A DNA stretch of 64,000 nucleotides from Carcharhinus longimanus (Eukaryota), in assembly GCA_030264375.1 (NCBI GenBank), contig JASCQW010000081.1, positions 93,040,923-93,104,922 on the forward strand. The letters run 5' to 3'. The position numbers were made by a program, and so were the translations under genes. Within the stretch, counting starts at the first letter, position 1. Every line of letters begins with the position of its first letter. The notes beneath the pieces were generated by a model that was not told where the DNA came from, did not search any database, and saw nothing but the letters and a program-made list of their open reading frames with translations. Positions 1-62,883 of the stretch are shown piece by piece.

Positions 1-464
1 ATAGTTTAGCAAACACCTCAAAATATGAAGAGCGGCAATGAGGTACACTTACATTTCTCGAGGAAGAGAGGTATGGACAGTTGACTTCCTGAAATGTTGC
101 CAGGTCTTATGGTCATCTTGTCTCGATCTGCTCAGATGGAGAAGTAAAGCTATTTAATCGATCCAAAGCTCGAAGCACCGCGAAAAAGTGATGGGATTTC
201 AAACGACGTGTCATAGATGTTTGTGGCTACATCGCGTTCTTTCTAGGACGCTAATTATTCTTCTAATTGAAAAGATCCATTATCGCCAGTATTTTGTTTT
301 CAGTCTTGTCGAAAGTAGGTTGACGTGATGGGAAGCATATGGCAAATAATGAATTCCAATTGAGTGAAATCTATTTATTTTCTTGAACTTCCCCATTATG
401 TCGGCCGAGACCACAACTCGAGATTACTCTTACTAGGAGAAAAAACACATATTTTTCAATTCTT

Positions 465-1260
465 TATATTCATTAAAAATGCTCGCTGCCGGACTGACCT
501 AAATTAATACTCATCCGAAGGCGGTGGTGATCTGCATCCATGAAGCCATGCAGACCATGCAGTGCACGGCTACGCACAGTGCTAACGATAAGAATACACT
601 ATTATTTTGATACAGAAATTGATGCACGCCAATATCGGTTAACGTCGGCTGGTGTTGTCTAAGGCTTGGTGTGGCTGAAACCTGAAGTTTCCCGAGGAAT
701 TACGTTTCCACATGTAAGTCGTCAGTTTGTAATTTGCTGTTGGAGTGATTTGATGAATTGCAGCAAACGAATTTTGTGAAAGTAGATGCAAGTGCGTGAG
801 TTTGGCTTGTGTGGGTAAGGCGCTACATGCGGCTTAATGTAGTGGTGGCTGAAGGCGTGCCGCTGATCGTACAGCTGTTTGTTTCCTTTTGGGTATCTTT
901 TAGATGATGAGTTTCGTTGGAGCGTTTTCTATCATAGCAGAATGCGGCAATTCATTCATACTTCTTCATCGTAGGTTGTAGATGTCGAACAGGTCTTTGG
1001 GGAGAAGTTGGGTGGGACAACAGTCGCTGGAAGCTTCCTATCCACTAATCTGCTTTTCTAGCCAGAGTTTATTTTTGGCCAGCACTGTTCAGCTTCCAGT
1101 CAAGAGCGAGTCCAAGGAGTTTGATAACTGTAGATTTACCAATTGTATTGCCAATGAATTTTAATAGACTACGTTTATGCCTTTCTCTTTCTGGGGCACT
1201 ATGTTGCCTCCTGATAATTTGGCCCGGGTCCCAATTGTCTACTTGTCGCACCAAACCGGG
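465..1260 (-). mobile_element. Representative LINE half of the monomer: 5'-truncated CR1/L2-group LINE 3' end (RT C-terminus, 3' UTR, tail), present in every unit
   Basis: The minus-strand consensus reads WADKWQVAF...PLRLNGNTIAESTVINILGVVLDQKLN..HINTVA. ORF-track pieces match it: 1069-1329 LKFIGNTIGKSTVIKLLGLALDWKLN and 40922-41110 PLRLNGNTVGESTVI. It ends in CATGAATGAATA, the same tail as the SINE at 28858. Confidence 0.85.
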
Positions 1261-1677
1261 AAAGTCTCCATAACTAAAAATGTTCGTAGTCTGACACAGT
1301 TGCATCACTTTACCAGAGTGTATGACCACTCGCTAAGTGAATGATGCGAAATCATTTCTTTCGCGACAATGGTCAAGCATCACTGTATGATAATTGCAAT
1401 CATCTACAACAAACAATGTTCAACTGAACAGATGGACTAGCGACACACAATGTCTGTGGACATGATGTTTCAAGTAAATGAGCGCCCGCGCCAAGAATAG
1501 TTGAAGTCAACTATCACTAAAGACGAAATGTTACATGATCAGATAACGCCAGAGTGCAAGCGGTATGGGGTTAATGTAGCCTGAGCTAAGCAACCATTCG
1601 AAAATGTTACGAGTGACATTGAGGCTCATTTCGCTTGCTAAAGAGAGGTACGGAAGTTTGATCCCTTGATATGTTAC

Positions 1678-1704
1678 CTGATCTTATGTCCATCATGTCT
1701 CGAT
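1678..1704 (-). other. Representative putative 27-nt micro-exon of the monomer
   Basis: Minus strand CTAATTGCCCTTACTGCTGCATTTCAGCAG|ATCGAGACATGATGGACATAAGATCAG|GTAACA. Homologous copies with AG/GT start at 3859, 5023, 6644, 8602, 20387, 22344, 26088, 31781, 33597, 38741, 42407 and 61813. Confidence 0.45.
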
Positions 1705-2497
1705 CTGCTGAAATGCAGCAGTAAGGGCAATTAGTCGTTCCAAAGGTCGAACCGTCCTACAGAACTGATCAGATATCAAATGACATATCATTGACTTACA
1801 TCAGTAATTCGTTTTTTTTTCAACTAACCGCTTTCCTTCTCAACAATCTATCACTTCTTCAATCAAATTAACATTCCATTTGCTGCAGCATCTTCATTCC
1901 GTTCTTGATAAAATGAAGTTGATGTGATTCGAAGCAAAATGGAACTTATGATTTCCAATTGAAGAAACGGTATTTATTTTCTTTGTCTTCCTATTTTTTG
2001 ACGGTCAATAGTATTAACTTTGAATTAGGAATCCCTCCTTCCCTACCAAAAATGAACACGAACTTTTACGGTCTTTATATTCATTCGTGAGAATCACTAG
2101 TTGCCATCTGGAGTTCGAAATAATTCTCGTCAGAAGGTGGAGGTCATCTGCATTCATAAGAACAGCTGCAGAACATTCAACGCATGTGTAACCACAGTGT
2201 TGACGGTACGTGTCTTTTTCTATAATGTTGACAGAGGGAAATTGTTGCACAAACATATATGTTAATGACGGATAATATTAGAATAGGGTGGGGCGCGATG
2301 TCTTGTAAAGGAATTCCTTTTCTACACCATCACGTGTTTGGAATTTGCTTTTGGAGTTGTTTTGATGAATTCGATCAGACGAATATTGTCCAAGATGGTG
2401 AAACAGTGAATGTTTGGCATGTGGGCGAGCGCATTGTTGGTGTCTTGAAGGATTGCTGGTTAACGCAGCGCGTTTGGACAACCTGCCAAGAAACTCC

Positions 2498-2716
2498 AAT
2501 TCTCACTCTGTTAGCCACTATGCCACATTGCCACTCTAATAATAACAATTCTCACTCCGTTAACCACTGTGTCACCGGGCCACCCTAGTAATTCTAATTC
2601 TCACTCTGTTAGCCACTGTGCCACAGTGCCACACAAGTAATTCCAATCCCCATTGTTAACAACTGTGCCACAGCACCACCCTAGTACTTCTAATTCTCAC
2701 TCTGTTAACAACTATG
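2498..2716. repeat. ~49-bp minisatellite, ~4.5 copies
   Basis: aattctcactctgttagccactgtgccac... units start at 2498, 2547, 2596, 2645 and 2692. Confidence 0.9.
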
Positions 2717-3209
2717 TTGACGTTGTTGAGTGTTGTTGGAGCTATGCATTTTATAGCATGTCGAGGCTTTTCAATCATGCTCCTTAATTGTACGGTGAAG
2801 TTGTTAAATAGGATTTTGCGGAGGGGTCGGATATAACACGAGATGTGTGACTTGTTTCACAATTCCTATCGTCTAATCTCCTTTTCATTCTTACCACCGT
2901 TCTTATTTATACATTAGCCCCTGTTCTTTTATTAATCAATATAGTCGTCCCGGATTGAAAATGTTGGAAACAACGAATACATTGTAATTTACTCTCGATG
3001 GATGACTTTTTCTGCTTATCTAGCTTGGAGTAGTTTTCTGGCTCAAAATTCAGTTCCCCGAAGGCTATTTATCACATCTTGGGCCCAACCCGGTAAAACA
3101 GAAGAACGTGAATTCCGGTTGATAAGCTTACATGTCTTGAGACTCTCAGATAACGAACAGCCTTAGTACATTGTTGAACCACTCGGTCATTGAATAATGG
3201 AGAATCCTA

Positions 3210-3550
3210 TAAGAAACATAGAATCCCTACAGTGCAGAAAGAGGCCATCTGGCCCATCGAATCTGCACCGACAACAATCACACCAAAGCCCTACCCCCAT
3301 ATCTCTACGGAGTTGCCCGTTAATCCCTCTAACCTACGCATTTTAGGACATTAAGGGGCAAATTCAGCGTTAACAATCAACATAACCCGCACATCTTTGG
3401 ACTGTGGGAGGAAACCGGGGCGCCCGGAGGAAACCCACGCAGACACGAGGAGAATTTGCAAACTCCGCACGGACAGTGACCCAAGCACGGAATCGAACGC
3501 AGGTCCCTGGAATTGTGAAGCAGCAGTGCTAACTACTGTGCTGCCATGCC
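3210..3550 (-). mobile_element. HE1/V-SINE-type tRNA-derived SINE
   Basis: Minus strand: A-box head GGCAGCACAGTAGTTAGCAC, B-box GTTCGATTCC, V-domain GCGTGGGTTTCCTCCGGGCGCCCCGGTTTCCTCCCAC, CR1-like tail ending TTCTATGTTTCT. Confidence 0.9.
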
Positions 3551-6500
3551 TATTATTATCGCGCATCAATGTGTAATAATTACAGGCAACTGCATGAAGC
3601 ATTTGCGAACTGAACAGTTGGACCAGTGGCAGGCAATGACCAGAAAATAAATCTTCAAGGAAAAATAAGGAAGAGTCAAATAAAATTGATGTCAAAACGA
3701 CTAATGACGGGACATGAAGAGACGAGATCAGGCTAGAGTGCAATGGATATGAGTTTAACTGGTGTCTTGCTTCAGCAACCCCTCCAAAACATTGAAAGCA
3801 GCTTTTAGGGAGATTTCGATCAGGGAAGAGTGATAGTAATGAATTCTTGACATGTTACCTGATCTTGTGTTCAGCTTGTCCCGATCTGCTCAAGGAGAGA
3901 TGTCAAATGATCATTCCCAAGATTGAACCACCCTCATAACTGATCCAATCACAAATAGCATGTGATTGACCGCCATCAATGTCTCGCTTAGTATTCAGAT
4001 AGCATCCTACAAGCTCAAATTTTCATCATTCACCTCTTAATTAAAATTACTTTGTGTGCAGTTTTCTCATTCCAGTCTTGTCAAAATGAAACTGTGATGG
4101 GAAGCTAATGGGAATTAATGAATTCCCAGTGAAAGAATGGTATTTCTTGTTTTGGTCTTCCTCTGTTTTGGCTATTAATAGCGTTGGCATTAATTTAGGA
4201 ATTCCGCTTTTTGTGTTAAATTAGAAAAAAATCACCAACTCGCATGTCCTTCTGTTCAATCAAGAGAAGTGCTTGCTTCTTGCTAGGCCAGAAACTAATG
4301 CTCATTAGAGGGTCGAAATCTTCTGCATTAATGAAACCCTGCAGCCATGTCAGCGGTGGTGTATTTAGAAATTGCTACTGAAGTTGTTTGGATGAATTTC
4401 AACAGTTGAATCTTGTGCACAGTGGTGCAACGGCGTGAGATTGACTTCTGTGATTGATGTGATCGGTGGGGCATTTGACGATTGTTGGCTTCCGGAGTGC
4501 GTATGGATATCAAGCCAATTGCATTATATAGTTTGGCGTTGCAGTTGTTCAGTGCTGTTGAAACTATATCTATCATGGCAAGCCGCAGCTATTCTATTTT
4601 AGTCTGAATTGTATATTGCTGATGGTGAACAGCATTTTGGGCAGTTGCCGGATGGAACAGGAAGAGATAAGGTCATTACTGAACAATCCAAATTGCTATT
4701 ATTCGCGGAATTATCCAGCATAGCCGCTTAATAATTACAATGAAAGAAATCACCCGTTTTGCAAATTGAACAAATATATCAATTACACACAATGACTGCG
4801 GATATCATTGTCCAAGGTAATGGAAGCAAACGCGAAAAACAATTGGAGCCAATCAAATACAGACGAAATGTTGCCGAACGAAATATGTCCAGAGTGCAAC
4901 AAGTATTCGTTTTGCTGATGACTTAGTTATGGAAACCCCTCAAAATAATAAGAGCGGCAGTGAGGTACACTTACATTTCTCGATGAAGAGAGGTATGGAA
5001 AGTTGACTTCCTGAAATGTTACCAGATTTTATGTTACTCTTTTCTCGATCTGCTCAGATGGAGAATGAAGCTACTTAATCGATCCAAGCTCGAAGCGCCT
5101 CGCAGAACTGATGAGATTTCAAATGACGTGTCATAAGCCTTTGTTTGTAAATCGTTTTCTTTCTAGAACGCCAATTATTCTCCAAATTGAAAAGATCCAT
5201 AACCGGCAGTATTTTGTTTTCAGTCTTATCAAAAGCAAGTTCATGTGGTGGGGAACATGTGGAAAATAATGATTTCCCATTGAAAGAAATCTATTTGTTT
5301 TCTTGTCCTTCCCCGTTATTTCGGCTGACAGCACAATTAGAGATTACTCTTATATAAAAGAACTTATTTTGTTTGGTTCCTTAAATTCATTAATACAAAC
5401 AAATGTGCGTTGCCGGATAGACCTAAATTAATACACATCAGGAGGCGGAAGTGGTTTGCATTCATGAAACCCTGCAGACCATGCATTGTACGGGCACCCC
5501 CAGTGCTGACGGTAAGAGTGCACCATAATTTTGGTTCACGAATTGATGCATGGCAATGTTTGTTAATGTCGGCTGGTGTTGTCTAAGACTTGATGTGGCT
5601 GGAACATGAAGTTTCTCGAGGAATTAAGTTTTCATATGTAAGTCGTCAGTTTGAAATTTCCTGTTGGAGTTGATTTGATGAACTGTAGCAAACGAACTTT
5701 GTGAAAGTAGATGCAAGTGTGTGAGCTTGCCTTGCGTGGATAAGGCGCTATATGCGGCCTTAATGTATTGATGGCTGAAGGAGTGCCGCTGATCTTACAG
5801 CTGCTTGCTTTCTATTGGATATCTTCAAGATGTTGAGTGTTGTTGGAGCGGTATCTATCATAGCAGGGCGCGGCTATGCCTTCATACTTCTTCGTAGGTT
5901 AAAGATATTGAACAAGTTTTTGGGGAGAAGTCGCACTGGGACAAGATTTCGTTAGCTCGGTGGACGTTTGCTATCCACTAATCTGCTTTTCTAGCCAGAG
6001 GGTTTTTTGTTTGGCTGGCACTGTTCAGCATCCAGTCAAGAGGGATGCCAAGAAATTTGATTATTGCAGATTTCGCGATTGTATTGCCAATGATTTTTAA
6101 TGGACTGTAGTTGTGCCTTTCTCTTCCAGGAGCACGATTTTGCCTCACGTTTCTTTGGACCGAACTCTACTTGGCTACTTGGCGGGCAAAACTTGCCTGG
6201 CTAAAATCTGCGTAACATAAGTTTCCGTTAAGCAGCTTGACAATGTTCGTAGACTGACACAAATGCATCAAGTTACCAGAGTGTGGGACCACTCGCTAAT
6301 TGAATAATGCAGAATCATTGTATTTGCGATAATGGTCATGCATTACTGCATGATAAATGCAATCGTCTATATCAAACAATGTTCAACTGAACAGATGGAC
6401 TAGAGACACACAAAGACTGAGGACATTATTCCGCAATTAAATGAGCGCCCACGGCAAGAATAATTGAAGTCAATATCACTAAAGACCAACTTTTACGTGA

Positions 6501-7952
6501 CCAGATAAGGCTAGAGTGCAAGTGGTACGACGTTTGCTCTTGCCTGAGCGAAGCAAACATTCCAAAATGTTACGAGTGACATTGAAGCTAATTTCGCTTG
6601 GTGAAGAGGAGAGGTGCGGAACTTTGATTTTTTGATATGTTACCTGATTGTATGTCCATCATGTCTCGATCTGCTGAAGTGAAGAAGTAAGGCCAATTAG
6701 CCGTTCCAAAGCTCGAACCGTCCCACAGAAGTGATCAGATTCAAATGACGTATCATTGATTCACATCAGAAATTCACTTTTTGTTTCAACAAACAGCTTT
6801 GCTTCTCAACAATCTATTGCTTCTTCAATCACTTTAACATCTCATTAACTGTAGCATCTTTATTCCGTTCTTGATAAAATGAAGTTGATGTGATGTGAAG
6901 CAAAAGGGAACTTATGATTTACAATTGAAGAAACGGGACGATTTTCCTGGCCTTCCTAGTTAACAGTATTAACGGTGAATTAGGAATCCCTCCTTTTCTA
7001 ACTGAAAGAAACACAAATAGTTACGGTCTTCACATTCATTCATGAGAATCACTAGTTGACATCTAGAGTTGAAATTAATTCTCACCAGAAGGTGAAGGCG
7101 ATCTGCATTCATGAGTGAAGCTGCAGAACATTCAACCGATGCGTAACCACATTGTTGACAGTAAACTTTGTTTTCTAAGATTTTGACACAGCAAAAATTG
7201 TTCTACAGCAATATATATTAATGTCGGGTGATAATGGAATGGGGCGCGGGGTATTATAGAGGAATTCCATTTCTACACATCAGCGGTTCCGTATTTGGAA
7301 TTTGCTATTGGAGATATTTCGTTGAATTCCAGCAAACGAATGTTGTCCGACATTTTGAGAAGGTTAATGTCTGGCATGTAGGGCCGAACAGGTCGTTGGG
7401 CCTTGAAGGATTGTTGGTTCACAGAGTGCGTTTGGGCAACAGCTGTCTGCTTTCCATCGGAATATTCTGACGTTGATGAGTGTTGTTGGAGCTATGTCTT
7501 TCATAGCATGTCAAGGCTTTTCAATCATGCTCCTTAATTGTAAGTTGGAGATGCTAAATAGGATTTCGGGGAGGATTTGGATATAACATGAGATGTGTGA
7601 CTTGTTTCACACATCCTAGCTTCTAACCACCATTTTGTACATCCGCACCTTTCTGTTATTAATCAGGATAGCCGCCAAGGAGTTGAAAACGTTGTATACA
7701 ACGATTACATAGCCATTTACTTTCAATGGATGACTTTTGCCTGCTTATCTGCTTGGATTACTTTTCTGCCTCAAAATTCTGCCCCCCCCCCCGCCCCCCC
7801 GAATGCTGTTTAACGCATGTCGGGCCTAACCCGGTAAAACGGAAGAACGTGAATTCCGGTTGATATGCGTAAATATCTTGAGAATCTCAGATAAGGAACA
7901 GCTTTAGTACATTCTAGAACCACTCGGTCATTGAATAACGCAGGATCCTATT

Positions 7953-8289
7953 TGAATAATATAATCCCTACAGTGCAGAAAATGGCCATCTGGCCCATCG
8001 AGTCTGCAAAGGCCACAATCTCATCCAGACCCTACCCTCATATCTCCACGCATTTACGCGTTGATCCCTCTAATCTACGCATCTCAGGACACTGAGGGGC
8101 AGTTTCAGCATGGCCAATCAACGTAACACGAACATCTTTGCATTGTGTGAGGAAACTAGCACACGAAGGACACCCACACAGACACGAGGAGAATATGCAA
8201 ACTCCACACGGAGAGTGACCCAAGCTCGGAATCGGACCCAGGTGCCTGGAGCTTTGAAGCAGCAGTGCTAACCACGGTGTACCGTGCCG
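7953..8289 (-). mobile_element. HE1/V-SINE, duplicate of the 3210 copy
   Basis: Same element at the same host position (after aatcctat, before attattagcgg). Confidence 0.9.
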
Positions 8290-11200
8290 ATTATTAGCGG
8301 ACGTGATGTGGATCAATGTGTAATAATTACAGGCAATTTCAGGAAGCATTTGAAAACTGAATAGGTGGACCAATGACAGGCAATGACCAGAAAATAATTC
8401 TACGAAAATATAGCAACACCAAATAAAATTGATATCAATACCAGTAAAGACGGAAATTGAAGAGAGGAGATCTGACGAGAGCGCAATGGATGTTTGTTTA
8501 ACTGATGCCTTGCTTAAGCACACCCCCCAAAATATTGAAAGTGGCATTTAGGAACATTTCGATCAGCGAAGAGAGTCACTAATGAATTCTTGATATGTTA
8601 CCTGATCCTATGTCCATCTTCTCCCGATCTGCTCAAAGAGAGATGTAAAAGGCAATTAATCGTTCCAAAGATTTAACCGTCGCACATAGCTGATGCAATC
8701 TCAAATGGCATGTGATTGGACGTAATCAATATCTCGCTTTCTATTCAGATAACATCCTACCAGCTCAAATTTCCATCATTTCATCTCTTAATTGAAAATT
8801 ACTTTGCGTGCAGTTTTCTCATTTCAGTCTTGTCAGAATGAAATTGATGTGATGGGAAGTTAATGGGAATTATGAATTCCCAGTGAAAGAATGGCATTTT
8901 GTTATTTGGCTGTCCTCTGTTTTGGCTGGTAATCGCGTTAGCATTAATTTGGGAATTCCTCTTTTTGTGTAAAAAAAGGAACACCAACTTGCATGTCCTT
9001 CTGGTCATTCATGGAAAGTACCTGCTACTCGCTAGGCCATAACCTAACGCTCATCAGAAGGCCGAGATCTTCTGCATCGATGAAACCCTGAAGACAATGC
9101 AATGTACATATGCCCACATTGCTTACATTAAGAGCGTTCTTTGTTTTTGACACAACGAAATTGATGGCACGGCATTTGTTTTTAATTCTGCTGGTTTTGG
9201 CATGTTTTGGGAGAGACTGGAAGGATGTCGAGGAATTCAGCTCCTACCGTCTAGACCTCATGCCATTGGACATTGCTATTGAGATGCTTTGATAAATTTC
9301 AGCATGCGACTGTTTCCCAAAACGATGCAGCCTTGTGATTTTGTCTTCTCTACGTAGGGAGAACCTTTTACCGACTGTTGGTTGACGGAGCGCAGTTGAA
9401 CCTCAAGCCACTGTTTTGTTTTGTATTGCGTTAAAGCTGTCGAGCATTGTTGGAGTATCATCGATCATGGCATGTCGAGGGTATTCGAGCCTCTTGCCAA
9501 GTTATAAGTTGTAGATGGTGGGCAGCATTTCGGGGAGGTGCAAGATGGAACTGGAAATAATTGACATGTTAGCCGATTCTTGGACTCTTGTGGAACTGAG
9601 AGATCAGTTGGGACCTTTAAGGATTGTTAGTTGACAGAGTGTGGTTGAACATCAAACTGCCTGTTTTCCATCGGAATTCTTTTAAATTGGTGATTGTACT
9701 TGGATGGACGTCGATCATGACAGTTCCACTGAATCTTAGTCCTTAGTTGTACGTTGTAGATGCTGGAGAGGATTTTGGGGAGGAATTGCAGGATAAAAGA
9801 ATTGTTTAAGTCGTTACACACTTCCCAACCTCAAATCTGCTTTTCTCGACACAGGATTTATATGCCCTACATCGTTCTTTTTCTAGTCCAGATCGACCAT
9901 CCGGATTGTATTGTTATTTAATATCAATAGATAACGGTTAAGCATTTCTCTTATTGGTGCAGTTTGTTGCTTCAAAATTTCATGGCGGGAATGGTACTTC
10001 CCACCTCTCCGGCCAAACCATGAAAATCAGGAAACTTGAATTTCAGTTGATAAACTTGACAATCGTTATAATCTCAGACAAATGTATCACTTCAGTACAA
10101 TGTGTGACAACTCGCTCATTGAATAACGCAAAATAGGGAAATTGTGGATCCTGACTCTGTCATAATTACAATCAACTGAATCAAATATTAAAAAAAATGA
10201 ACAGATGGACCAAACACACATGATACCTGAGAAAAAGAAACATTCTACAAGTAAACGGAAGCAAACGTCGTCAAAAATTGAAGCCAATCCACTAAAGACT
10301 AATTATTTAGAGACGACGTATAACCAGAGTGCAACAGGAATTCGTTTTAATGATGTCTCGATTAAGCAGCACATCCAAATAAATCATCTTAATGCAAAAT
10401 AAAAGATTGTTCATCGTTTATATTCATTTTGAGAAGTAGTGATTTCCGGCTAGACCAGAAATTAGTGTTCATCAGAAGGCAGAGATAATATGCATTCATG
10501 AAGTCCTGCAGATCATGCACTCCATGTATACTCTCAGTGCTGACGGTAACTGTGTACTATTGTTGGCTGACGGAACGCATTTGGACATCAAGCCGTTTGC
10601 TTCTTCTTGGATGGTGATAGTTGTTGGGTCATTATCTATTTTGGCAGCTCGCGACAATTCATTCATACTTCTTAATTGTATGTTGCAGATGTTGGACTGG
10701 ATTTTTGGGGGAAGTCGGAGGAGACAAGAATTTTTGAACTCGTTACACGCTTCGTAGCCAATCGTCTGCTGCTCGAGCAATGGGATATTTCTCGCTGGCA
10801 CTGTTCAGTTTATAGTCAAGGACGACCCAAGGATTTTGTAAACAGTGGATATCGCGATTGTATTGCCAATGAATCTCAACGGATGAAGCTTCTGTCCTTC
10901 TCCTCTTGGAGCAGTTTGTTGCCTGACAGTTGTCTGGCCTGAATGCTACATTATATAAGGATTTTTTTTTATGTTAACAAAAACAGGAACACCAACTTCT
11001 ATTCGTCAGGCCAAACTGGTAATATCAGAACTTGACGTTCGGTTAATAAGCTTGAAAATCTTGATCTTCTCAGATACATTCATCACTTCAGTAGACTGTG
11101 TGATCATTCACTCATTGAACAATGCAAAATCCTATTATTAGGGAAATTGTCAATCCTCGCTGTCTGAGAATAAGAGTCAACAGAATCAAAAATTTTAAAA

Positions 11201-13235: not shown

Positions 13236-13241
13236 AGTTTA

Positions 13242-13285
13242 GAACTGTGTTTACCCCAGTCCAACGCCGGCATCTCCACATCAAA
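13242..13285 (-). mobile_element. Penelope-like terminal fragment
   Basis: Reverse complement of ggagatgccggcgttggactggggtaaacacagt, also seen at 20873 and 43650. Confidence 0.6.
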
Positions 13286-13289
13286 CACA

Positions 13290-18372: not shown

Positions 18373-18429
18373 TTCCTATTTGCCGGCATATAGAATTTAT
18401 TGATTTTAGTAGACAGTAGTAATGTTCTA

Positions 18430-50100: not shown

Positions 50101-51879
50101 TTGGTTGCGTCAGTGCTTTCAGCAGCTGTTTTTTTTTGGTCAATGCTAAGAAATTTAAATGCCAAGCATACAGAATCTAAGTTACAACGTTTGTTTCGAA
50201 CACCATGACTAAGGGTTGCCTTGGTAACAGACTCTGTAGGTTTTTGCAATTTGTTAGCCTAAAGTTTAAAGGAGACACTCCACTAAAGGGAACATTTCAG
50301 ATTTGAATTCGTTGTTGTTGTCAACAACAAACCTATTCTGATGTAGGTCATCAGGCATATGACAGAATTACTCAAATGCTTTCAGTTCAGTTGAACCAGC
50401 AAATGAGCTCGGTGTTGAACCAGAAGAAGAGCCAGATCAACTGAAGCAGTTAAAGATATTCAAGGGAAGTTAGATCAACTCGAGCAGTTAGGTCTTAACT
50501 TTGCCAGCTTCAGATTACTCACGCTCTAACTAGTGAAATGTGGCAAATCATACAGCACTTACTGAGGGCGGACAACCACCGAAGAACTCCAAAACTTCTG
50601 AACACTATGAAACCAAGTAGTACATTTTCTTTGAGAGTGACAAAAATTCGATTATACTCTTTAGATAATGAATGTTCCCTTGTGTTTACTTGAACAACAT
50701 TTCAACCGAACTTTCCACTCAACAAAATGTGACTGATTTGTTAAGGTTTCTGTTGCGATATAAAGTAAAACAATTTATTAATTATTCTCTTAAAACGAGT
50801 GAAGTTTTCGGTCTTTACGTTAATGAACCTCCAAATGTTAAGGTAGTAACACCTTCTCAAATACTTTTGCCAGGTTTCCAAGCAAGGTGAAGGGAATTAA
50901 TCTCTGCGCTGTAATAGAAGTTCATAGAATAAACCTTATCCATTTGTTGGAGAGTGCTTTTTTTTCTGGTGCTCTTGTTTTTTGTCAGATGACAGTGACA
51001 ACATTAAATTAGGAGTACGTCATTCTCTTAAATATATATAAAAAAAATTTACTTTGTTAATATTCATTGAGTAGAACTAGCAGTTTCCGGCTAAACAAAC
51101 ATTCAATGCGCATCAAAAGGCGGTGAAGATCTGCATCCAAGAACACTGCAAATCGTACCGTACACATACAATCATAGTGTTTTTCGTAACGTTGATTTGG
51201 ACCCAGTGAAATTGAATGATCAGCCATATACTTTAAGGTTCGGGTAGTATTGCTTGGGGTGTGGTGCGGGTGTGGGGTGGCGGAGTACATTGACGGTACT
51301 AGCGGTCTGACCCAGCAGTTCAGCGGCTATGACTTTCCAATTTTATCTTGGAGTTATTTTGGTCAATTCCTGCAGAAGCTGTTTGTGCACAATTACCTCA
51401 CGGCATGAATTTGCCTTGTGGGAAAGACAGTGTCAATTGGTTAGGGCGGCCTTTGCAGAATGGTTAGCTGATAGAGTGGGCTTGCAAATCAAGCTGTCCA
51501 TTTTCTTTTGTATATCGCTGAGGCTGTTTAGTATTACTGGAGTTAAATCTATCAAGACAGGCCGAATGTACTCCTATTCCTTATTTTAACGTCGCCGATA
51601 GTGGACAAGATTTTTTGGAAAGGGGTAAAATGGGACAAGAAATGATTAACGTGTGACGCGATTCGTAGCCTCTCACTTGCTGTTTCCAGTCAAAGTATTT
51701 ATATGATGGCACTGTTTGCTTTCTGGTTGAGAACGACCCAAACAATCATGATAACGTTGGATTCCGCGATTGGTGTAAATGGATGATTTTCTCCTCTTCC
51801 AGAAAGCTGTTCCCTCGCAATTTTCTGGCGGGAATGTTACTTGCACTTGGCAGCCCAAGCCGGGCTAATGAGAAAAAAT

Positions 51880-52730
51880 AACATAGAACGAAGTAAAGCA
51901 AAGGATAGGGACAGACCCTTGAGCCTTAAAGCCTGCGCCGGTCATGATACCTGCCTGAACTAAAGCCGTATGCAATTACGAAGTCATTATCCTCCTACTA
52001 CCGTCCTATTCATCTATTTGCCTCGTTGGCCCTTATTGCCGCTATCGTACCTCGTCCCACCAACTCCCCGCGGAATGAAATCCAGGCATTTTCCGCATCC
52101 TATATAAAACGCTTGTCTTTACATCTCCTCTAAACTTCTCCCTAGCACCTTAAATCTATGTCTCCTAGTACTTGACATTTCTACTCCAGGAAAGGGCATC
52201 TGACTGTACGCTGTGTCCGTGCCACGAATAAACGTCTATCAGGTCACCATCAGCCTTCTTCGTTCCATTGAGAACAAACCAAGTCTACCCAAAATCTCAT
52301 AGCTAATACACTCCAGACAAGGCAACGTACTGGTAAAACTCTTCTGCACCCTACCCAGAGTATCCACATCCATCTCGTATTGTGGCGACTAGAAATGCAT
52401 TCTAAATTAGGCCTAAGTAATATTCTGTATAGCAGCAGCATGAGCTACCATGTTTTTTATACTTAATGTTTCGATTGATGAAGGCAAGAATGTTGTATTT
52501 TTTCTAAACTAGCTAATCGACCTACGTTGCAATCTTCACTGATCCGTTGACCTCTCAACCTTCCTGTTCCTAAGGTTTGTACCATTTACTGTACAATCTC
52601 TACTTGCATTAGACCTTCAAACATGCATTACTTCACAGTTCGCTAGACTAAACTCCATCTGTCTTTTCTCTGCCCAGGCCTCCAACCGGTCTGCATCTTG
52701 CTGTGTCCTCCGGCAATCCTACTCACTGCA
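51880..52730 (-). mobile_element. CR1 LINE 3' fragment
   Basis: ORF 52250-52441 MLLLYRILLRPNLEC; CR1 UTR and tail at 51880-51990. Confidence 0.85.
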
Positions 52731-55700
52731 CCAATTTGACTTTCACAAAAAAAAAGCTTCGTATTGATTATTTTCAAATCCTTGATACTCGCAGGCATTC
52801 ACAACGTTTTGACACATTGTATGACGGGCCACACTTTTAACAATGCAACAACCTGTTATTAGCGGAGATGTTGGAGCAGCGCTATGTAATAATTGCAGTC
52901 AAACAATTACTATTTGTACAGCTGGCCCAATGAGGCACAATGTCTGAATAAATCAATTTTGCAAAAAAAAGGAGTAATCGCCAAGGAAAATGGAAGTCAG
53001 TGGCACAGACACATTGACCAGACGAGTCGTGTTAAGGCCAAAGCGAATCAGGAATTTATTTTCTCACTGCCACAGTCAAACAACCCCTGCAAAATAATAG
53101 GAGTGACATCGAGGAACATGAAGATTATTGGAAGGAAATTCAAACAAAAAAAAACAAATCGCTACTACATATATAGGTTATTTTCGAAGTGTCTTGTCTC
53201 ATTCTGCTGAGATAGCGACGTAAAACGAATTAATCTTCTCAAAACTCGTACTGTGTCATGTAATCCATCAGATCTGAAATGATGGACCGTTGACCTTCAA
53301 CAGTAAGTTACTTTCTCTTCAGTGGGAATCTCGCCTGCTGAATTCTCTTAATCTAAAATACCGGTATTTGCAATATTTTGCTTCTAACCTTTCCAAAATT
53401 AAACTACGGGCTGCTGACTGGAATTAATAATTTCCAACTGCCGGAAAGCAATTCAGTTTCTGTTGTTCTCTGCATTCCTCTGTATAACAACATTGACATT
53501 AAATTAGGAATACCTGTTTTGCAAACAAAGAAAAATACAAATTGACCGTTGTTTTCATTACGTCATGGGATTTTATGTGTTTGTTGTCGAGTCCAATATT
53601 TTGTGTTCATCAAAAGAGTCTGGTGATCTGCATCTTTGAAGCCTGTAGATCGTACGGTGCGCATACACCCACAACGATGTTGGACTGGGTGTTCCATGAC
53701 TTTCGCCCAGTGAAATTGAAGCTACGCGATATATTGTAATGTCGGGTTGGTGATGGCTAAGGTATGTTTGTGTGCGGTAGGGGTTGTTGAGAGCGTCCAG
53801 TGATAATTGTCCTGACAATTCCGTTTCCAGAGGTCATGTGTTTGGAATTTGCCATTGTTTGATGAACTCCTGCAGAGGCATCTTATTCACAATGATACCA
53901 CTGAGGGAGGAGGTTGGCTTGCGACATTGTAGGGTGAGGTCTTTATGGAATTTCAGTGCATGGAGCGGGATTGAACATCAAGGCGTCTGCTTTCTATTGG
54001 ATGTCATTGTGGCTGTTGAGTACTGATGGAGCTTTGCCTAACAAGAGAGTTCTTTGGTATTCATTCACAATATGCGTTGGAGGTGATGGAAACTTTTTTT
54101 TTTGGAAAGCATCGACTGGGACAACGAGTTACACATTTCACAGCCTCCAACTTGATGTTCTAGCGACAGCATTTATACAGCGGGCACAGTTCTATTTCCG
54201 ATCGCGAACAACCCGAAGGATGTTAATAAAAATAGATGCTGCGATTGTATTGCCGTTTAATCTAAATGAGTGATGGCCACGTTCTCTTTCATCTTGGTGC
54301 AGTTGGTTACATCGCAATTGTGTGGCGTAAATGCTACTTGCCACTTGTCACCCCAAGCCTGAATTGATCTCGAGATGATAAATTCCACTTAACAATCATT
54401 AATACCTTTACATGTGCAACCGATTGCAGCATTTCAGTACACTGTATATATCTACTCGCTTATTGAACAATAAAACATCCGATTATTAACGGAAATGCTC
54501 GAGCATCACTGTAGTGATTACAGGAATTTGGCGCAAACAATTGCAAATTGGACGTTTGGCCTCATGGCCCACAATGGCTTTGGGCACCATTGTACGACCA
54601 AAGTGGAAGCAATCGTCAAGGAAAGTGAAGGCAACACTGGAAATCGAGGCTGTCACCAAGCAAGATGAGATAAGACCAGAATGCAAAACATTTTAAGTGT
54701 ACTGGTGCCACAGGAAAGTAAACCCTCCAAAACATTAAGAGTCACATTGAGGCACATGTGACAGATTGGAAAAGAGGTACGAAAAATGGACTTATTCATA
54801 TCTTACCTGATCCGGTGTCCAAAATGTCTTGCGCCACTTAAATGGACAAATATAACTGATTAATCATTCCAAACCTCGAAGCGTGCCACAGAACATAAAA
54901 GTATTGAAATGACTGGTGGTTGCCCTTAATGCATAATAACATTCCTTTCTGGGAGACTGTTTCATGCTCACACTTCCATCTCCTTTCTTTTAAAAAAAAA
55001 GTAATTCAAGTGTCTGCAGTATCTTGCTTTTACTGTCTTCAAAATTAAAGTGATGGGACGAGAGCGAATCGGAATTAGTCATGTTCAGTTGATGGAATGC
55101 TGTTCACTTACTGTGTTGTCTTTCGTTAGATAACAACAGTAATACTAAATTTGGAATACATGTGTTTGCTTCCAAAAAAGAAAGCATGAATTTGTGTCAT
55201 TGTTTACCATCATTCATGAAATGTAATGGTCGCTAGCTGGACAAGAATCCAATATTCATCAGAAGGTGGTGATTATCTGCATCCTTAAAGCCCAGAAGGT
55301 CATACCGTTTATATGTTCCCACAATCATGTTAGAATAGGTGTTCCATGATTACACCCGGCGAAATATAAGTTACTGCAATATATTTTAACCTTAGGCTTG
55401 TGTCGGCTTTTGGTGTGTGTGTGGGGATAGGGGGGGGGGGGGGGGGGGGNNNNNNNNNNNNNNNNNNNTTACATGCAATTCCATTTCTATAAGTCATCGA
55501 TCATGTGATTGCAATTTGCTATTGGAGTTATTTTGATAAAATGCTGCATAGGCCTACTGTTCACAATGACGCCACTGAGGGCGGATGGCTTGCCGGAGTG
55601 TCAAGGTGGAGTCTATACGGATTGTTGGCTGACGATGTGGTTTTCAGTATCAAGCCGTATGTTTTCTGCGGATGTCGCAGACGTTGTTGCGTGTTGTTGG

Positions 55701-58700
55701 AGCCGAATCTATTGACCACGTTCGAAGCTATTCAATCACGCTCCCCATTTGTACGCTGTGGATGGTGAACAGTGTTTTTTTTAAGTAATAGGCTGGGCGA
55801 AGAAGTGATATAACTCGTTGCACGCTTCCTAGCCTCTTGTTTGTTTGTCTAGCAACAATATTGTACAGCTGGCATAGTTAGGTTTCTGATCAGGACAGAA
55901 CAACACTTACGGGGTTAAATGGCAGTGGATTCAGCGATTTTCAGGCCATTTAATCTAAATGAATGGTTGTCATGTATTCGCAACTCTTGGAACAATTGGT
56001 TACCCGGCAACACTTTGACACAGATGCAACAAACGTCTTGTCCGCCCAACCTGGCATAATCAGGAACGCGTGGATTTCACTAGATAATTTTGCAAAACTT
56101 GACATTCGCAGAAAATTGAAAAGTTTTAGTGGTGTATGACGATTCGCTCATTGAGCAATTGAAAATAGTGTTATTAACGGACATTTTCGAGCAGCACTTA
56201 GTAACAATTACGCGCTGTTGGATCAATCACTTAAAAGGGACCCGATGGCCCAGTGACACACAATTACTGGGGCATAATTTTACCAAAAACGCAGAAGAAG
56301 GCGCCTAGAAACGTCGAATTCAATTCTACAAATGAAACAATTTACGAGATGAGAGTGTAAACGGTTCTAGTTTTAAATGTGCCATCATTTCCAATCCCAC
56401 GAAATCATTAACCGAGGCATTGAGCCGCATTAATATTATTGGAAGGAGAAAGACACGAAAAATTGACTTCTTCATAAGCGATGTGATCGTGTGTCCCAAA
56501 TGTCTCTCTCTGCTCAAATTGGGGACTTACACGGATTATTCATCCCAAAGCTCGAAGTGTGACACTGAGTTTACCCGATTTCAAATGGCGAGATATTGAA
56601 CTTGATGAGTAACTGTCTTTCCTTTCCTGCTCAACCTTCTAGCATTTGTCATTTTCACTTAATATTCCAATATCGCTATATTGTGCTTTAAATATTTCCC
56701 AAATGCGATTGATGTCGCGAGAATCGAATGGAAATTAATGATTTCCACTTGGCTGAAAGCGATTCACTATCTGCTGTATTCTGCGTTTCGTTGTATAACA
56801 ACGGTGACATTAAATTTGGAGTACCTCTTTTTGAAAACAAAACAAAACGTACGAACTTGTCCGTTGTTTGTGTTAATTCATGAAAATCCACGCGTTTGCT
56901 GTCGAATCCACTACTTCGTATTCATTAAGACGCCCTGGTGACCTGCATCTATGAAACTCTCTTGGCCATACCGTGCACCCAACAGCCCTGTTAGTTCGGA
57001 TGTTCTATGACTTTCGCTCAGAGAAATTGAAGTTTCGGCAGTACATTGTAATGTCGAGTTGGTGTTGGCTACAGCATGTGTGCATGGTGGGGGCGGAAGG
57101 ATCGAACAATTGATTATGCTACTGACAGTTCCGCTTCGACGAATCAGCCTTCTTATGTTTGGAATTTGCCATTGTCTGATGAATTCCTGAAGGGGAATCT
57201 TGTTGACACTCGTTATTTGTACATTGTAATTGGCAGATTTTCTTTTTTGTGAAGTGGTCAGCTGGGACAAAAAAGTGCTTAACTTGTTATACACTTCGAA
57301 GCCTCTACCTTATTATTCCAGCCGCATTGTGTATACAGCGGCACAGTTCTCTTTCTGGTTAAGAACGATACCAAGGCTCTTGATAACAATGGTTTCAGCG
57401 ATATTTTAGAATTGAAACGATGGTCATGTACTGTTTCACTTTGGAGTAGGTGGTTATATCTCAATTCTGTGGCATGAATGTTATTTGCTGATTTTCGGCT
57501 ACAGCAGTGATTAATCTAGAAATCATGAATTCCACGTAATGATGATCGAAACCTTAACAGAGACAGGCAATTGCACCTTTTTAGTACAGTGTATGCCACT
57601 CGCTTATTGAACGGTGCAACAATCTATTACTAACGGATTTTTTCAAGCACAACTGTGCAGTAATTACAGTAACTTGCATCAAATTATTGCAAATTGGACT
57701 GTTGTCCTAATTGCCCACAAGGTCTGTGGACGCCATCGTACCATAAAAAAGTTGGAAGCAACCATCAAGGAAAAGCAAAAGCAATACGGCGAATCAGGAA
57801 TTTTATGTTACCAGACGAGATAAGGCCAACATACAAAACATATTAATTTTGCAGTGCCACAGGAAAGCAGACCCTCCAAAATATTAAGAGTGGCTCTGAG
57901 GCACTTCTATTAGAAGAAGAGGTCCGAATGTTAGACTTCTTCATATGTTACCTGATCCTGTGTCCAATATGTAGAGCTCAAGTCAAATGGACAAGTAAAA
58001 CTGATTAATCTTTCCAAACCTCAAAGTGTGCCGCACAGCATATAATAATTGAAATGACTGCTAGTTGACTTTCATAAGCAACTGGAAGCCGGTTTTCTGA
58101 AGAAGATCCCATCTCACTTTTTAAAAAAAATTAAAATCCAATTTTCTGCAGTACTTTGTTTTTACTCTTTTCAAATTTAAACTGATGTGTTGGAGAACTA
58201 ATTAATAATTTTCAATGGATGGAGAACTATTCATTTTCGAGTGTTTCTGTCTTTCGTAAAGTAATACAGTCACACGAATATGGGAGTACATGCATTTGTA
58301 AACAAAACAAAAACGAAAATGTAGTTTGCTTATCTTCATTCATGTAATGAAGCGGTTGCTATCTAGACCAGAACTTAATGTTGATCAGAAAGTGTTGGTG
58401 ATCTGCATTCTTGAAGTCCTGCACATCCCACTTCCATGTCAATCTAGGTGTTCCTTGAAATTTACCCTCCAAAATTAAAGACACTGCAATATATATTAAT
58501 GTCGGGTTGGAGTTGGTTACGGTGTGTGCGGTATATGTGATTTTGGGCGTGTCGGGGCGGAGGCAGCTGGATGTGTTACAAACAATTTCGTTTGTACAAC
58601 TCTGCCGTCGTGTGATTGAAATTTCCTGTTGGAGTTATTTTGATAAATTCCTGCAGGGCCCTATTGTTCACAATGATGTCGTTGAGGAAGGATAGGTTGC

Positions 58701-59234
58701 AGGATTGTGGGAGTGGGACCTTTATTGTTTGAAGGCTAACCATGTGGTTCTCAACATCAAGCTGTGTGTTTTCTATTCGATGTCGCCGATGTTGTTGAGC
58801 ATTGTTAGCGCAATATCTATTAAGACACGTTGGGACTATTCCATGAAACTCAGGACTTGTAGATTGGAGATGGTGGGTGGTGGGCCGAGTCCTGGAGTAG
58901 GAGCGGCAGGAACAACAAATGGTTAACTTGTTCTCAACGTCCTCGCCTGTCACATGCTGTTTGAGCCATCTCATGTATATAGCCGACCCAATTCATTTTC
59001 TGGCCAGAAACAATCAGTGCAATCAGTGATTGTATTGCCATTTAATCTCAATGGAAGATAATCATTTTGTCGTTCTTCTTGCAGCAGGTTGTTGTTTCGC
59101 AATTGTGTGGTGTGAATGTTTCTTGCCAGTTTTCCACCCAAGACAGAGGAACCCTGAATTTCAACGAGTAATCTTGAAAACCTTGATATTCACACACAGT
59201 TACATCATTTTAAAGTTCAAAATTGTTTGTTAGA

Positions 59235-59410
59235 CACAAGTAGGCTTGTATTAAGACTGCAATGAAGTTACTGCGGTAATCCCCAATCAAAACACGCTGG
59301 TTCAACTTTGGATACGCCTGAGGACAAATTTAGCATGGCGAATCAACGTAACCAGCACAACTTTCGACTTTGAGTGGAAACTGGAGTACCCAGAGGAAAG
59401 CCACACAGAC
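59235..59410 (-). mobile_element. V-SINE fragment truncated by CR1
   Basis: ggaaactggagtacccagaggaaagccacacagaca; the tail resembles the SINE at 18430. Confidence 0.65.
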
Positions 59411-60202
59411 ATAAGAACATGAGAACTAGGAGCAGGAATACACAATCTGGCTCCTCAAGCCTGCTCCGCCCTTCAGTAGGATCATGGCTGATCTTGTCCT
59501 TGTCTCAGTCCCCTTATCCACACACTCACCAGAACCCTTAATTCCTTTACTGTTCAAAAAATGTATCTATCCTTGCCTTAAAAAAAACATTCAATGGCAT
59601 AGCCTCACCTGCTTCACTGGGCAGGCAATTCCACAGATTCACAACCCTTTGTTTGAAGAAGTTCCTCCTCAGTTCAGTCCTAAATCTGCTTCCCAATATT
59701 TTGAGGCTATGTCGCAATATTCTCGTTTCACCTGCCAGTGAGGAAAAAAAAAACTTCCCTGCTTCTAACTTATTTATTCCCTTCATAATCTTTTTTTTCT
59801 ATAAGGTCTCCTCTCATTCATCTGAACTCCAATGAGCATAATCCCAGTCTAAGCAGTCTCTCCTCATAAACTAACCCTCTCAATTCCAGAATCAACCGAG
59901 CGAATATCCACTGCACCCCCTCCAGTGCCAGTTTATCCTTTTTCAAGTAAGGAGACCAAAACAGTACACAGTATTCCAGGTGCGGCCCCAGAAGCACCAT
60001 ATACAGCTGCAACGTAACATCATTCCGTTTAAACTCCATTCCTGTAGGAATGGAGGATAAAATTGAATTTGCCCTCTTAATTACCTGCTGCACCTGCAAA
60101 CCAACTCCTGGGATTATTGCACAAGGATACCCAGGTCGCTCTGCACCACAGCACGCTGTTTTTTTTTACCATTTATAATTTGGTCCATTTTGCTGTTATT
60201 CC
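59410..60202 (-). mobile_element. Relatively young CR1 LINE 3' fragment
   Basis: ORFs 59818-60099 (LLGPHLEYCVLFWSPYLKKD) and 59547-59786 (HSLKILGSRFRTELRRNFFKQRVVNLWN); tail TTCTTATGT. Confidence 0.92.
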
Positions 60203-60302
60203 NNNNNNNNNNNNNNNNNNNNNNNNNNNNNNNNNNNNNNNNNNNNNNNNNNNNNNNNNNNNNNNNNNNNNNNNNNNNNNNNNNNNNNNNNNNNNNNNNN
60301 NN

Positions 60303-60450
60303 TTGGTAGGCAAGGGGATTAAGGGTTATGGGGAGAAAGCGGGAAAGTGGAACTGAGCCACTTCAGATCAGCCATGATCGTATTGAATGGCGGGGCAGGC
60401 TCGAAGGGCTAGATGGCCTACTCCTGCCCCTACTTCTTATGTTCTTATGT
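60303..60450 (+). mobile_element. CR1 3' UTR/tail
   Basis: aagggttatggggagaaagcggg...gggctagatggcctactcctgcccctacttcttatgttcttatg. Confidence 0.85.
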
Positions 60451-60473
60451 TAATCTGCGTCGAAACGACACCT

Positions 60474-60575
60474 CTAAGGAAGGGTCACCTTCATAGGAAA
60501 CATTGGTTCCCTTCTCTCTCATCTGATGTGGTCAGACTGCTGAGATTTTCTAGCTTTTTTTGTGTTTTTGTCATC
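60474..60575 (+). mobile_element. Short Penelope-related repeat (degenerate hammerhead-bearing end); second copy at ~62283-62380
   Basis: ctaaggaagggtcacc...gaaacatt...gtcagactgctgagattttctagc versus ctgatgaagggtcaccttgacc...gtcacactgctgggactttcc. Confidence 0.5.
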
Positions 60576-62883
60576 AGTGTGTACGTCGTATACGTTCCTC
60601 TATGCAATGTAACAGTTGCGGCTTGAATCAGAATTTCACACCTCATATGAGGCAATGTGCTCCTTCAAATAATCCCTGCAGACCATGCCTTCGACTTACA
60701 CTCATCGTGCAGTAATGGCAGTGTTCGATGACTTTGACTCGGTGAAATTGAAGGAAGGGCAATATATTTTCATAAGCGTGGTGTTGGATTGGAGGATACA
60801 TTAAACATAGTTGTGCGATTGCCCCTATAAAGGTTAGTCCCTTGCGTTTGGAATGTGCTAATCGAGTTCTCCGCATGAATTCCTGAAGAGGCATCCAGTA
60901 TTCAGATACGAAATTATGACACCTTTCTTTTAAGTGGGTTTAGTGATTTAACAATCCTGGTGTGAGTAGGGAGGGGGAAAGGTGTGCTTGGGGGCAAGGG
61001 TAAAATTCAAGCCGTCTGTTTTTTTTCTCCCATGCAGTTGAAGTTGTTGAGTATTGTTAGAGCATCACATATGAAGCCAATTTAAGGGCATTCAATCAGA
61101 CTCCTCATTTGTTCATTGTAGACTGTTTTCTGGTTTTGGTAGGAAGTGAAAAAAACTGAGTTACTCGCCACATGATTCCCTGATTTTAACCTGCTGTTCT
61201 CGCCATATTATTTATATATCGGCGCTAATTCACTTTCTGATCAATGCTGACTCCAAGGTATTGATTACGATGGATTCAGTGGTGGTGTTTCAAATCACTT
61301 CAATGGGAATAGTTATGTATCCTGTCTATTGGAGCAGCTGGTTGCCTCGCAATTCGGCGGCGAATGCTTCTTGTCCAATTTTGGCATACGCCTGGTAGTC
61401 CGGAAAACGTGAATTCCATTAAAGTAAGCCTGTTAATCTCAGATAATTCCATCATTTTAATACAGTGTATAACTATTCCCTCTTAACAACAACGGAAAAG
61501 GAAAGTTGTGATCGGAACTAATAGAGCAGCATTGTATAATATTTACAGTCAATCGGATCAAACATTTGCAAATTAAACAGGTGGCCCTATGACACGCAGT
61601 GGCTGGAAAGATCATTGAACCAAACAAATGGGAACAAGTGTGGGAAAAAAATGAAATGAATAGCACAAATAACAGTAGAGCGCGCAATAGGTATTCGTTT
61701 TCTTGACACTACAGAAAAGCATTTCCTCTAAAATGTTAAGAGTGACATTAAGGCCCACTTAGATTATTTGATGAGGAGTGGTCTGAAAATAAATGACTTT
61801 TTCATATGTTACCTGCTCGTATATCCAAGCCATCTTTTTCTGTTCAAATGGATAGGTAAAACTAGTTAATTGTCCCAAAAATTGAAGTGTTCTATAGAAT
61901 TTCACAAATTTGAAATGGCGAGTCATGGACCTTTCTCAGTAACTCGCTTTATTTTCAGGAAGACCCATGTGTGCCTGACTCTCCACCGCTTATTTTATTT
62001 TAGATTCCCAGCATCGACAGCATTCTGCCTTTGAACCTTTGAATCTTACATTGATAAAATGGGAAGTTAAATGGAATGAATAATTTCATATTGAACGAAA
62101 GATATTTATTTACCCGCCGCTTTACATTCTGTTGGATGAAAATTGAATTAGCAAGGCCTGGCTTGGTGAAAAAAAAAGTGACGGTTGTGTGCATTAAGAT
62201 AAGGCAAATACAACGGATTTTGGGATCTGAAATTAAAATAAAAATAGTTCTGATTAAGGGTCATGGCGACTTGAATAGTGAGCTCTGATGAAGGGTCACC
62301 TTGACCTGTTATGGACTCTATCTTCTCCCAAGGCTTGCGGTCACACTGCTGGGACTTTCCAATATTTTCAGCTGCGTTTTACTGTCTTGTTCGTATTCCT
62401 TCTTCAAACGTGGCAGACCATAATTTCACACCCGTAAGAAAAAAAGTGGTGAATTGCATCAAATAACACTCTGGGGATATGCCTTGTAGGTACACCGACA
62501 GTGATTTTAAGTAAGGGTTCCAGGACTTTTACTCAGTCGAAGTGAAAGAACGGCCATTTATTTCCATGTGGCTTGCCTGGGAATTTGAAGTGCTGGTGGC
62601 AGTGCCTTTCTGAAAGTTATGGTCTGGCGATTGGAATATCCTACTTGAATTATGATGATGAATTTCTGCAGAGACACCCTGTACAAGTTTTGTTATTTTG
62701 ACGGATTTCGTTGGATGGGGTATATTTACCAGTTGAAGATAGACGGAAAACCGGCTTGCAGATGCAGCATTCCGCCATGTTTTCCATGATTTGGAAGTCT
62801 ATGAGTCCTGCTGGAGCAACTCTATCAAGGCAGTTAGACGTTATTCAATCAGGCTGCAAACCTGTTCGTTGTAGAAGGTGAAC

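Follow-up and report, generated by a model that had tools for sequence, protein, structure and literature searches.

A tandem array of 27-nt exon-like units in the shark Carcharhinus longimanus is probably a functional, unannotated exon array

Introduction

Schistosome micro-exon genes (MEGs) carry long runs of symmetric exons of 6-36 nucleotides (nt) that give rise to skipping variants; within a gene these exons are mostly dissimilar and lie after a signal peptide. The SmPoMuc genes of Schistosoma mansoni show a more regular arrangement, in which a 27-bp exon encoding a 9-residue repeat has been tandemly duplicated with its flanking introns in units of ~1 kb, building a variable repeat domain (PMC2576457). 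Among vertebrates, the repeat region of chicken BG genes consists of many tiny frame-preserving exons in variable number (PMC4046983), and the elasmobranch scpp / sparc-L genes provide a shark example in which a gene that arose by exon duplication has an acidic repeat region (PMC9122587). Here we describe a tandem array of 27-nt exon-like units in the shark Carcharhinus longimanus, found in a window of 64,000 nt (contig C81, GenBank JASCQW010000081.1, positions 93,040,923-93,104,922) of an assembly of 2.68 Gb in 68,774 contigs. Judged from its pattern of conservation, it is probably a real and functional array of exons, unannotated and with an architecture of a kind already known.

Results

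A single intron-exon-intron unit amplified in tandem

The array spans ~115 kb, from ~+64,000 to ~-51,600 in window coordinates, with several N gaps inside, so that ~51 kb of it lie beyond the left end of the window. There are 44 exon-homologous sites on C81, where one short exon with a length divisible by three (27 nt) has been duplicated together with its flanking intron in units of ~1.6 kb. Forty of these sites are ungapped (29 with an AG acceptor and a GT donor, two with AG/GC and nine with broken dinucleotides), while three of the others have deletions and one combines a broken acceptor with a 6-nt insertion. Similarity between copies is mostly 63-72%, and a younger higher-order repeat of three units (~4.9 kb) is ~80% alike. 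Most of the unit has the appearance of an ordinary intron; later insertions are also present, along with what we take to be remnants of old interspersed repeats. Contigs of a related organism tile the array colinearly and differ from it by a few percent, for example by 99 differences over 2,435 bases. The array is an old tandem amplification of a single 1.6-kb intron-exon-intron unit.

Seven further intact units lie elsewhere in the assembly, on C109 (two), C156 (two), C7720 (two) and C27 (one). All are on small gap-bounded or unplaced contigs, the six that were aligned nest within the tree of the array, and their unit parts share the high CpG content of the array. These units may be misplaced pieces of the array. 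A ~670-bp high-copy element resembling a long terminal repeat (LTR) occurs in the window at 47767-48448 (915 candidates), and copies of it also adjoin the units on C109 and C156. We rejected mobilisation by a transposon as the origin of the off-site copies, since the adjoining element is a high-copy repeat and since misplacement or chimeric joins explain these units equally well, given their small gap-bounded or unplaced contigs and their array-like CpG content.

Splice sites and exon length are kept above the intron background

The exon with its AG and GT dinucleotides forms the best-kept block of 31 columns in the 1,610-column unit (z 0.96; no non-overlapping window equals it), and the exon is also the window with the lowest maximum-likelihood rate, 0.88 as against at least 0.92 elsewhere. 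Both dinucleotides are intact in 35 of 48 aligned copies, where random intron columns with the same bases give an expectation of 15.5 +/- 4.4 (0 of 3000 draws); the 48 rows omit a damaged copy at -20.3 kb, an intact copy at -18.7 kb and the intact copy on C27. The excess extends outside the window, with 22 of 26 copies intact versus 9.3 expected. This retention is further supported by the acceptor G, which shows no change in any of the 48 ungapped rows (from 49 in total, including one duplicate) compared with 0.69 for intron G, and by the modal length of 27 nt, which is kept in 0.94 of 48 copies compared with 0.53-0.87 in 27 other windows of 27 columns. The CpG within the exon is retained in 33 of the 49 rows (of which one is a duplicate), while 21 other CpG columns keep it in 9-27 of 37-49 rows. 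Splice sites, length and, as shown below, an open frame thus all stand above background, as in a repeat gene of SmPoMuc-type architecture.

Within the window, an initial annotation had listed 22 homologous minus-strand sites, 13 of them with AG, exactly 27 nt and GT, one (at 101) with AG/GC and eight damaged. All 22 are present in one alignment and in the states described; a mismatch scan recovers 21 and a weight matrix 20, and the damaged site given near 53180, displayed separately, falls at 53177-53203. The sites are confined to the minus strand, and the highest matrix score on the plus strand is -14. In transcript order the features are as follows.

1..64000, minus strand: the part of the ~115-kb tandem array of ~1.6-kb exon+intron units that lies in the window; a truncated unit near 64,000 opens the array
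61813..61839, minus strand: 27-nt exon-like unit, AG/GT, the first intact copy in transcript order
57952..57978, minus strand: damaged copy, acceptor TG
56483..56509, minus strand: damaged copy, donor AT
54807..54833, minus strand: damaged copy, acceptor GG
53177..53203, minus strand: damaged copy, donor CT, phase-1 stop
49079..49105, minus strand: damaged copy, acceptor deleted
45826..45852, minus strand: damaged copy, donor TT
42407..42433, minus strand: 27-nt unit, AG/GT
38741..38767, minus strand: 27-nt unit, AG/GT
33597..33623, minus strand: 27-nt unit, AG/GT
31781..31807, minus strand: 27-nt unit, AG/GT; phase-1 stop, phase 2 open
26088..26114, minus strand: 27-nt unit, AG/GT
24571..24597, minus strand: damaged copy, donor AA
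22344..22370, minus strand: 27-nt unit, AG/GT
20387..20413, minus strand: 27-nt unit, AG/GT
11451..11477, minus strand: damaged copy, acceptor TG, donor GC
8602..8628, minus strand: 27-nt unit, AG/GT, in the younger ~4.9-kb three-unit higher-order repeat
6644..6670, minus strand: 27-nt unit, AG/GT
5023..5049, minus strand: 27-nt unit, AG/GT, weakened exon end; phase 1 open, stops in phase 2
3859..3885, minus strand: 27-nt unit, AG/GT
1678..1704, minus strand: 27-nt unit, AG/GT
101..127, minus strand: 27-nt unit, AG/GC

The 9-residue peptides read from these copies in phase 1 also agree with those reported, as does the stop in copy 31781. The description of one micro-exon per monomer does not hold strictly: flank-only profiles add seven partial units in the window that have no exon (near 63.7, 51.0, 44.5, 41.3, 37.7, 35.2 and 10.4 kb) and one more, at 40.1 kb, whose exon position falls inside an N gap. 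Acidic residues were said always to occupy positions 1 and 3 of the peptide, which is true of the 13 window copies and becomes 35 of 36 and 31 of 36, respectively, over all intact copies. Splice-site retention, called only modestly above chance, is stronger than that, at 13 of 22 in the window versus 6.2 expected (p=0.004) in addition to the overall excess given above. The proposed comparison of AG/GT and length retention with the rest of the monomer places both above background rather than level with it.

Two of three frames avoid stop codons

Stop-creating changes were counted per tip over 30 splice-intact copies (36 minus six recent duplicates), and the intron control for the same statistic is 0.74. 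Phase 0 is closed, with a stop in 22 of 29 intact copies and a TAA in the consensus itself, and its stop-creating changes are near expectation (14 versus 15.1, or 9 versus 13.9 without one polymorphic column). Phase 1, by comparison, has a single such change where 13.0 are expected (P 0.0007 after intron correction). Phase 2 avoids stops nearly as well, with 2 versus 13.4 (P 0.003 after intron correction), and a gene read in phase 1 only does not explain this. With the slowest half of the intron columns as control, the values are p 0.001 for phase 1 and 0.0005 for phase 2.

The identity of the avoided codons bears on whether the array is instead part of a spliced long non-coding RNA, a host RNA of the kind raised in the initial annotation, whose exons would be kept for splicing alone and whose stops would be rare through purine-rich enhancers. 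A published study describes splice enhancers as avoiding TAA and TAG and not TGA, the effect as frame-blind, and exons of long intergenic non-coding RNAs (lincRNAs) as stop-depleted for this reason (PMC7086181). The exon here is indeed 68% purine with weak donors, silent and replacement changes are reduced alike, and the array lies in a gene-poor stretch and has no protein homologue among 5,623 candidates. TGA-creating changes, however, number 1 versus 8.1 in phase 1, 1 versus 6.3 in phase 2 and 7 versus 4.5 in phase 0; phase 1 thus avoids TGA, which phase 0 tolerates, whereas the published effect concerns TAA and TAG in any frame. Because TGA is avoided although enhancers do not avoid it, the pattern favours a translated frame over enhancer constraint, clearly in phase 1 and marginally in phase 2. 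Nor is there a sign of small-RNA cargo (no Rfam match in the window, nor at E<=1 in L006) or of a second conserved block elsewhere in the unit in a 31-column conservation scan. We regard the non-coding explanation as rather improbable.

Comparison of silent and replacement changes distinguishes the two open frames. Phase-1 silent changes that are non-synonymous and non-stop in phase 2 number 27 versus a neutral expectation of 24.5, and phase-1 replacement changes are somewhat reduced (91 versus 117.7, or 0.77 of neutral, the silent ones standing at 1.1). In phase 2 it is the silent changes (observed/expected 0.57) that are the scarcer class, with replacements at 0.83. Of the two, phase 1 makes the better single frame, because its silent changes are about neutral with replacements at 0.77 and phase 2 shows the reverse. 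A gene read in phase 2 alone, encoding a basic repeat protein rich in Arg, Ser, His and Gly, would fit the observations that the only lineage with phase-2 stops has weakened donors and that copy 31781, with its phase-1 stop, has good splice sites. Against this, the scarcity of its silent changes is the opposite of a coding pattern, and its amino-acid changes are less conservative than those of phase 1 (mean BLOSUM -0.75 versus -0.38, not normalised); we consider such a gene highly improbable.

A further alternative is that the same exons are read in both frames, in phase 1 as a neutral DRDKMDIRS-like chain and in phase 2 as a basic RSRQDGHKI-like one, through alternative upstream exons or starts. 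Vertebrate exons under selection in both frames have been described, according to one report (10.64898/2026.05.28.727796). Both phase-2 stop-creating changes are in copy 5023, a member of the lineage with weakened donors, and phase-1 silent changes that would create a phase-2 stop number 0 versus 8.2 expected, in contrast to the near-neutral count of the other silent changes and to the lack of any such avoidance in phase 0. The two predicted products also differ in charge, with -0.05 per residue in phase 1 and +0.22 in phase 2. On the other hand, phase-2 avoidance is borderline when split by codon (TGA 1 versus 6.3, corrected P 0.055; TAG 0 versus 4.3, P 0.043; TAA 1 versus 2.9), and splice-enhancer constraint already predicts that TAA and TAG are avoided (PMC7086181). 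The signal is borne by about six sites with partly dependent tips, no frame-switching exon was found among the flank frames scanned, and neither frame shows a signal in the ratio of non-synonymous to synonymous rates (dN/dS). Dual coding is therefore an unlikely explanation in our view. It would have 40 or more micro-exons specify a neutral Asp/Arg polyampholyte and a strongly basic Arg/Ser/His/Gly protein under an upstream switch, in a 2-Mb domain that escapes CpG depletion, and for that composite picture our expectation is similarly low.

The favoured explanation and the points that weigh against it

The explanation we favour, at about even confidence, is that the array is the repeat region of an unannotated, lineage-specific shark gene whose exons would be spliced together in phase 1 to encode a chain of nonamers resembling DRDKMDIRS, which is predicted to be disordered. 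The phase-1 nonamer is rich in D, R, M and I (30% D/E, 25% K/R, Ser+Thr ~11%), and its product is predicted to be unfolded (FoldIndex -0.33). Under this explanation, unequal crossing-over would add units, and the phase-symmetric 27-nt exon would keep the frame, such that gaining, skipping or losing any one copy would leave the others unharmed. Because the frame is kept, damaged copies could drop out and the repeat number could drift, in a birth and death of exons. The intact exons would be joined in one mRNA, and translation in phase 1 would yield up to ~30-38 nonamers. Selection would act on splicing and on the open frame and little on exact residues, which fits a charged spacer or low-complexity domain with a net charge near zero, in which composition and length would outweigh sequence.

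Several observations count against this reading. The stop signal comes from about six sites per frame, with tips that partly share ancestry, and the usual marks of protein-coding selection are missing: the ratio of non-synonymous to synonymous changes (pN/pS) lies between 1.11 and 1.16 for phase 1 and between 0.99 and 1.21 for phase 2, omega is indistinguishable from 1 (freeing it adds a log-likelihood of 0.1 and 0.9 to the codon model), and the codon-position substitution bias suggested as a check shows no pattern (0.82/0.81/0.82). The initial reading of the sites as symmetric phase-1 micro-exons is thus supported in part, by the splice-site, length and stop statistics and not by codon position, by dN/dS or by phase 2, which is nearly as free of stops. 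The typical donor (GTAACA) is weak, most copies having a generic score of <=3.3. It was the motif that first revealed the sites, and the alignment was anchored on them, a bias that the flank-only profiles limit and do not remove. Beyond the exons themselves, the flanks yielded neither a first exon nor a known domain when 42, 150 and 73 selected open frames, only part of those present, were scanned against Pfam, and no protein among 5,623 candidates matches the phase-1 profile, the phase-2 product having not been searched.

The state of the individual copies also weighs against a gene that is active at present. Damage affects 13 of the 44 C81 sites, among them an unbroken run of six copies at 45.8-58.0 kb, and the exon ends are altered in one young lineage (5023, 101, -5359 and -10061). 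Among the 12 youngest copies (~80% alike), eight are fully intact, compared with a neutral estimate of 7.9 (0.9^4 x 12). The statistics therefore show selection over the history of the array, not necessarily today, and by now the gene may be under relaxed selection or dead. A neutral macrosatellite, or a once-selected gene that is now a relic, with the motif surviving by chance and picking, would accommodate this decay, the damaged sites, the seven further exonless units in the window and the missing spliced retrocopy. A satellite that was never selected cannot, however, yield 35 intact splice pairs where 15.5 are expected, or stop avoidance that is specific to frame, and we judge this explanation very unlikely. 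As read from the patterns of substitution, there is selection on splice sites, on length and on frame-specific stop avoidance over the history of the array. The copy at -5359 (L010 ~4640-4670, minus strand) has an intact AG/GT pair around 25 nt, and its inclusion would end translation in either frame.

Search for the remainder of the gene

Longer exons beyond the window ends had been suggested as a place to look, and the search returned no first exon and one guessed candidate for the last. In this single-copy stretch, ~56.5 kb left of the window (L005 ~3330-3490, minus strand), a long pyrimidine tract and an AG precede short frames that run into a stop in every phase, with an AATAAA ~0.7 kb further along; that this stretch is the last exon of the gene to which the array would belong is a guess. 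Candidate first and last exons in L012 were rejected as interspersed repeats (150 and 41 matches). There is no frame of more than 264 codons in the unmasked part of 794 kb. Pfam scans of the flanks gave only an integrase remnant, one 27-residue Arm_3 match and matches below the cut-off. The Arm_3 match (importin-alpha-type C-terminal repeat; L012:5951-6403, minus strand) spans 27 residues where an open frame ends, with E 6e-10, above the cut-off, and is possibly a stray gene fragment.

The phase-1 profile used in the protein search detects a control from the same species of at least 10 repeats at E<=10; a phase-2 profile passed its control as well. A protein match (P0011) from an earlier 49-position profile was discarded, as it aligned to the intron-derived part and that profile failed its positive control. 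Two other approaches were insensitive: a generic exon finder scored real micro-exons below its cut-offs, and an amino-acid-composition scan ranked its WDR76 control 1235 or lower of 7456. A search for a spliced retrocopy found none: the junction pattern gave 5 matches and the control 7, and no match had a repeat next to it.

A WDR76 exon lies 36 kb upstream of the first micro-exon; its 90-92% identity to the WDR76 genes of three sharks shows the genome to be that of a shark. Three exons of this gene lie at L014:3928-4861 (window-relative 97.9-98.9 kb, minus strand) in a CpG-poor stretch, on a misplaced or chimeric contig or as a partial duplicate. WDR76 was rejected as host gene: only three of its exons are present here, the WDR76 gene on C163 lacks these three at a 3.9-kb gap, and they are unrelated to the array.

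Genomic setting and other features of the region

The whole window lies in a gene-poor domain of ~2 Mb (~92.2-94.4 Mb of C81) with a CpG observed/expected ratio of 0.55-0.8 at 40% GC (20 samples of 6 kb); the ratio is 0.06-0.43 outside the domain and ~0.3 at four other loci. Such a composition suggests that germline methylation has long been low. Substitutions showed no strand asymmetry of the kind that germline transcription would leave.

Three further features are recorded here. A decayed retroelement is inserted in the array at ~12.6-19.5 kb, with an integrase-core remnant at 14876-15157 on the minus strand (Pfam rve, E 7e-7, under the curated cut-off). A 49-bp tandem repeat of ~4.5 copies occupies window positions 2495-2716 and presumably resembles the repeated end of a short interspersed element (SINE). 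At L051-L054 (window-relative ~-168 to -140 kb) there is an unrelated tandem duplication of local extent, made up of several blocks that are ~65% alike.

Discussion

The conservation pattern described here is of interest for two reasons. A gene of this kind would escape standard annotation, because its 27-nt exons are below the usual alignment seeds; and ~50 copies of one exon that have diverged mostly in parallel allow selection on splicing, on frame and on residues to be separated. The surprising feature is the presence of two open frames. If both were used, the array would encode a dual-coding repeat protein with a charge switch; if only one is, the array would add one more micro-exon repeat gene specific to a lineage, interesting for shark genomics and otherwise unremarkable in its architecture. 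In a few searches of the open-access literature, by title and opening of the abstract, we found neither a published description of this array nor a dual-coding repeat protein with a charge switch.

Three of the systems outlined above can be set apart from the array. In contrast to the mostly dissimilar exons of schistosome MEGs, all exons of the shark array are copies of one unit. The elasmobranch scpp / sparc-L genes share with it their shark origin, an acidic repeat region and exon duplication, and differ by a signal peptide, SxE sites and first three coding introns in phase 0 (PMC9122587); membership of the array in the SCPP / sparc-L family was rejected on account of the phase-0 stop in 22 of its 29 intact copies. 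The initial annotation had also pointed to BG/butyrophilin tails, and in the selected flank frames of this assembly, which has gaps and likely misplaced contigs, no Ig-V or membrane exon was found upstream, nor a B30.2 exon such as butyrophilins have downstream. The likeness to chicken BG is that of a vertebrate repeat region of many tiny frame-preserving exons; BG exons are 21-nt heptad exons of a presumed coiled coil behind an Ig-V domain and membrane anchor, whereas the shark exons are of 27 nt with a period of 9, and BG/butyrophilin membership was rejected on this basis (PMC4046983).

SmPoMuc is the closest counterpart, since in both systems a 27-nt exon for nine residues has been duplicated together with its introns. 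SmPoMuc units are described as >94% alike with at most ~20 per gene, while the shark array has at least 44 units of 1.6 kb, mostly 63-80% alike, at one main locus (PMC2576457). SmPoMuc is a multigene family of 15-exon genes with a signal peptide, a conserved 3' part and cDNA and protein evidence. The SmPoMuc repeat is, moreover, of mucin type and that of the shark is Asp/Arg-rich, which places the array outside the family, and no sequence homology is implied. The array thus lies outside the SmPoMuc, BG and SCPP families, and its architecture matches that of SmPoMuc and, more loosely, that of the BG tails.

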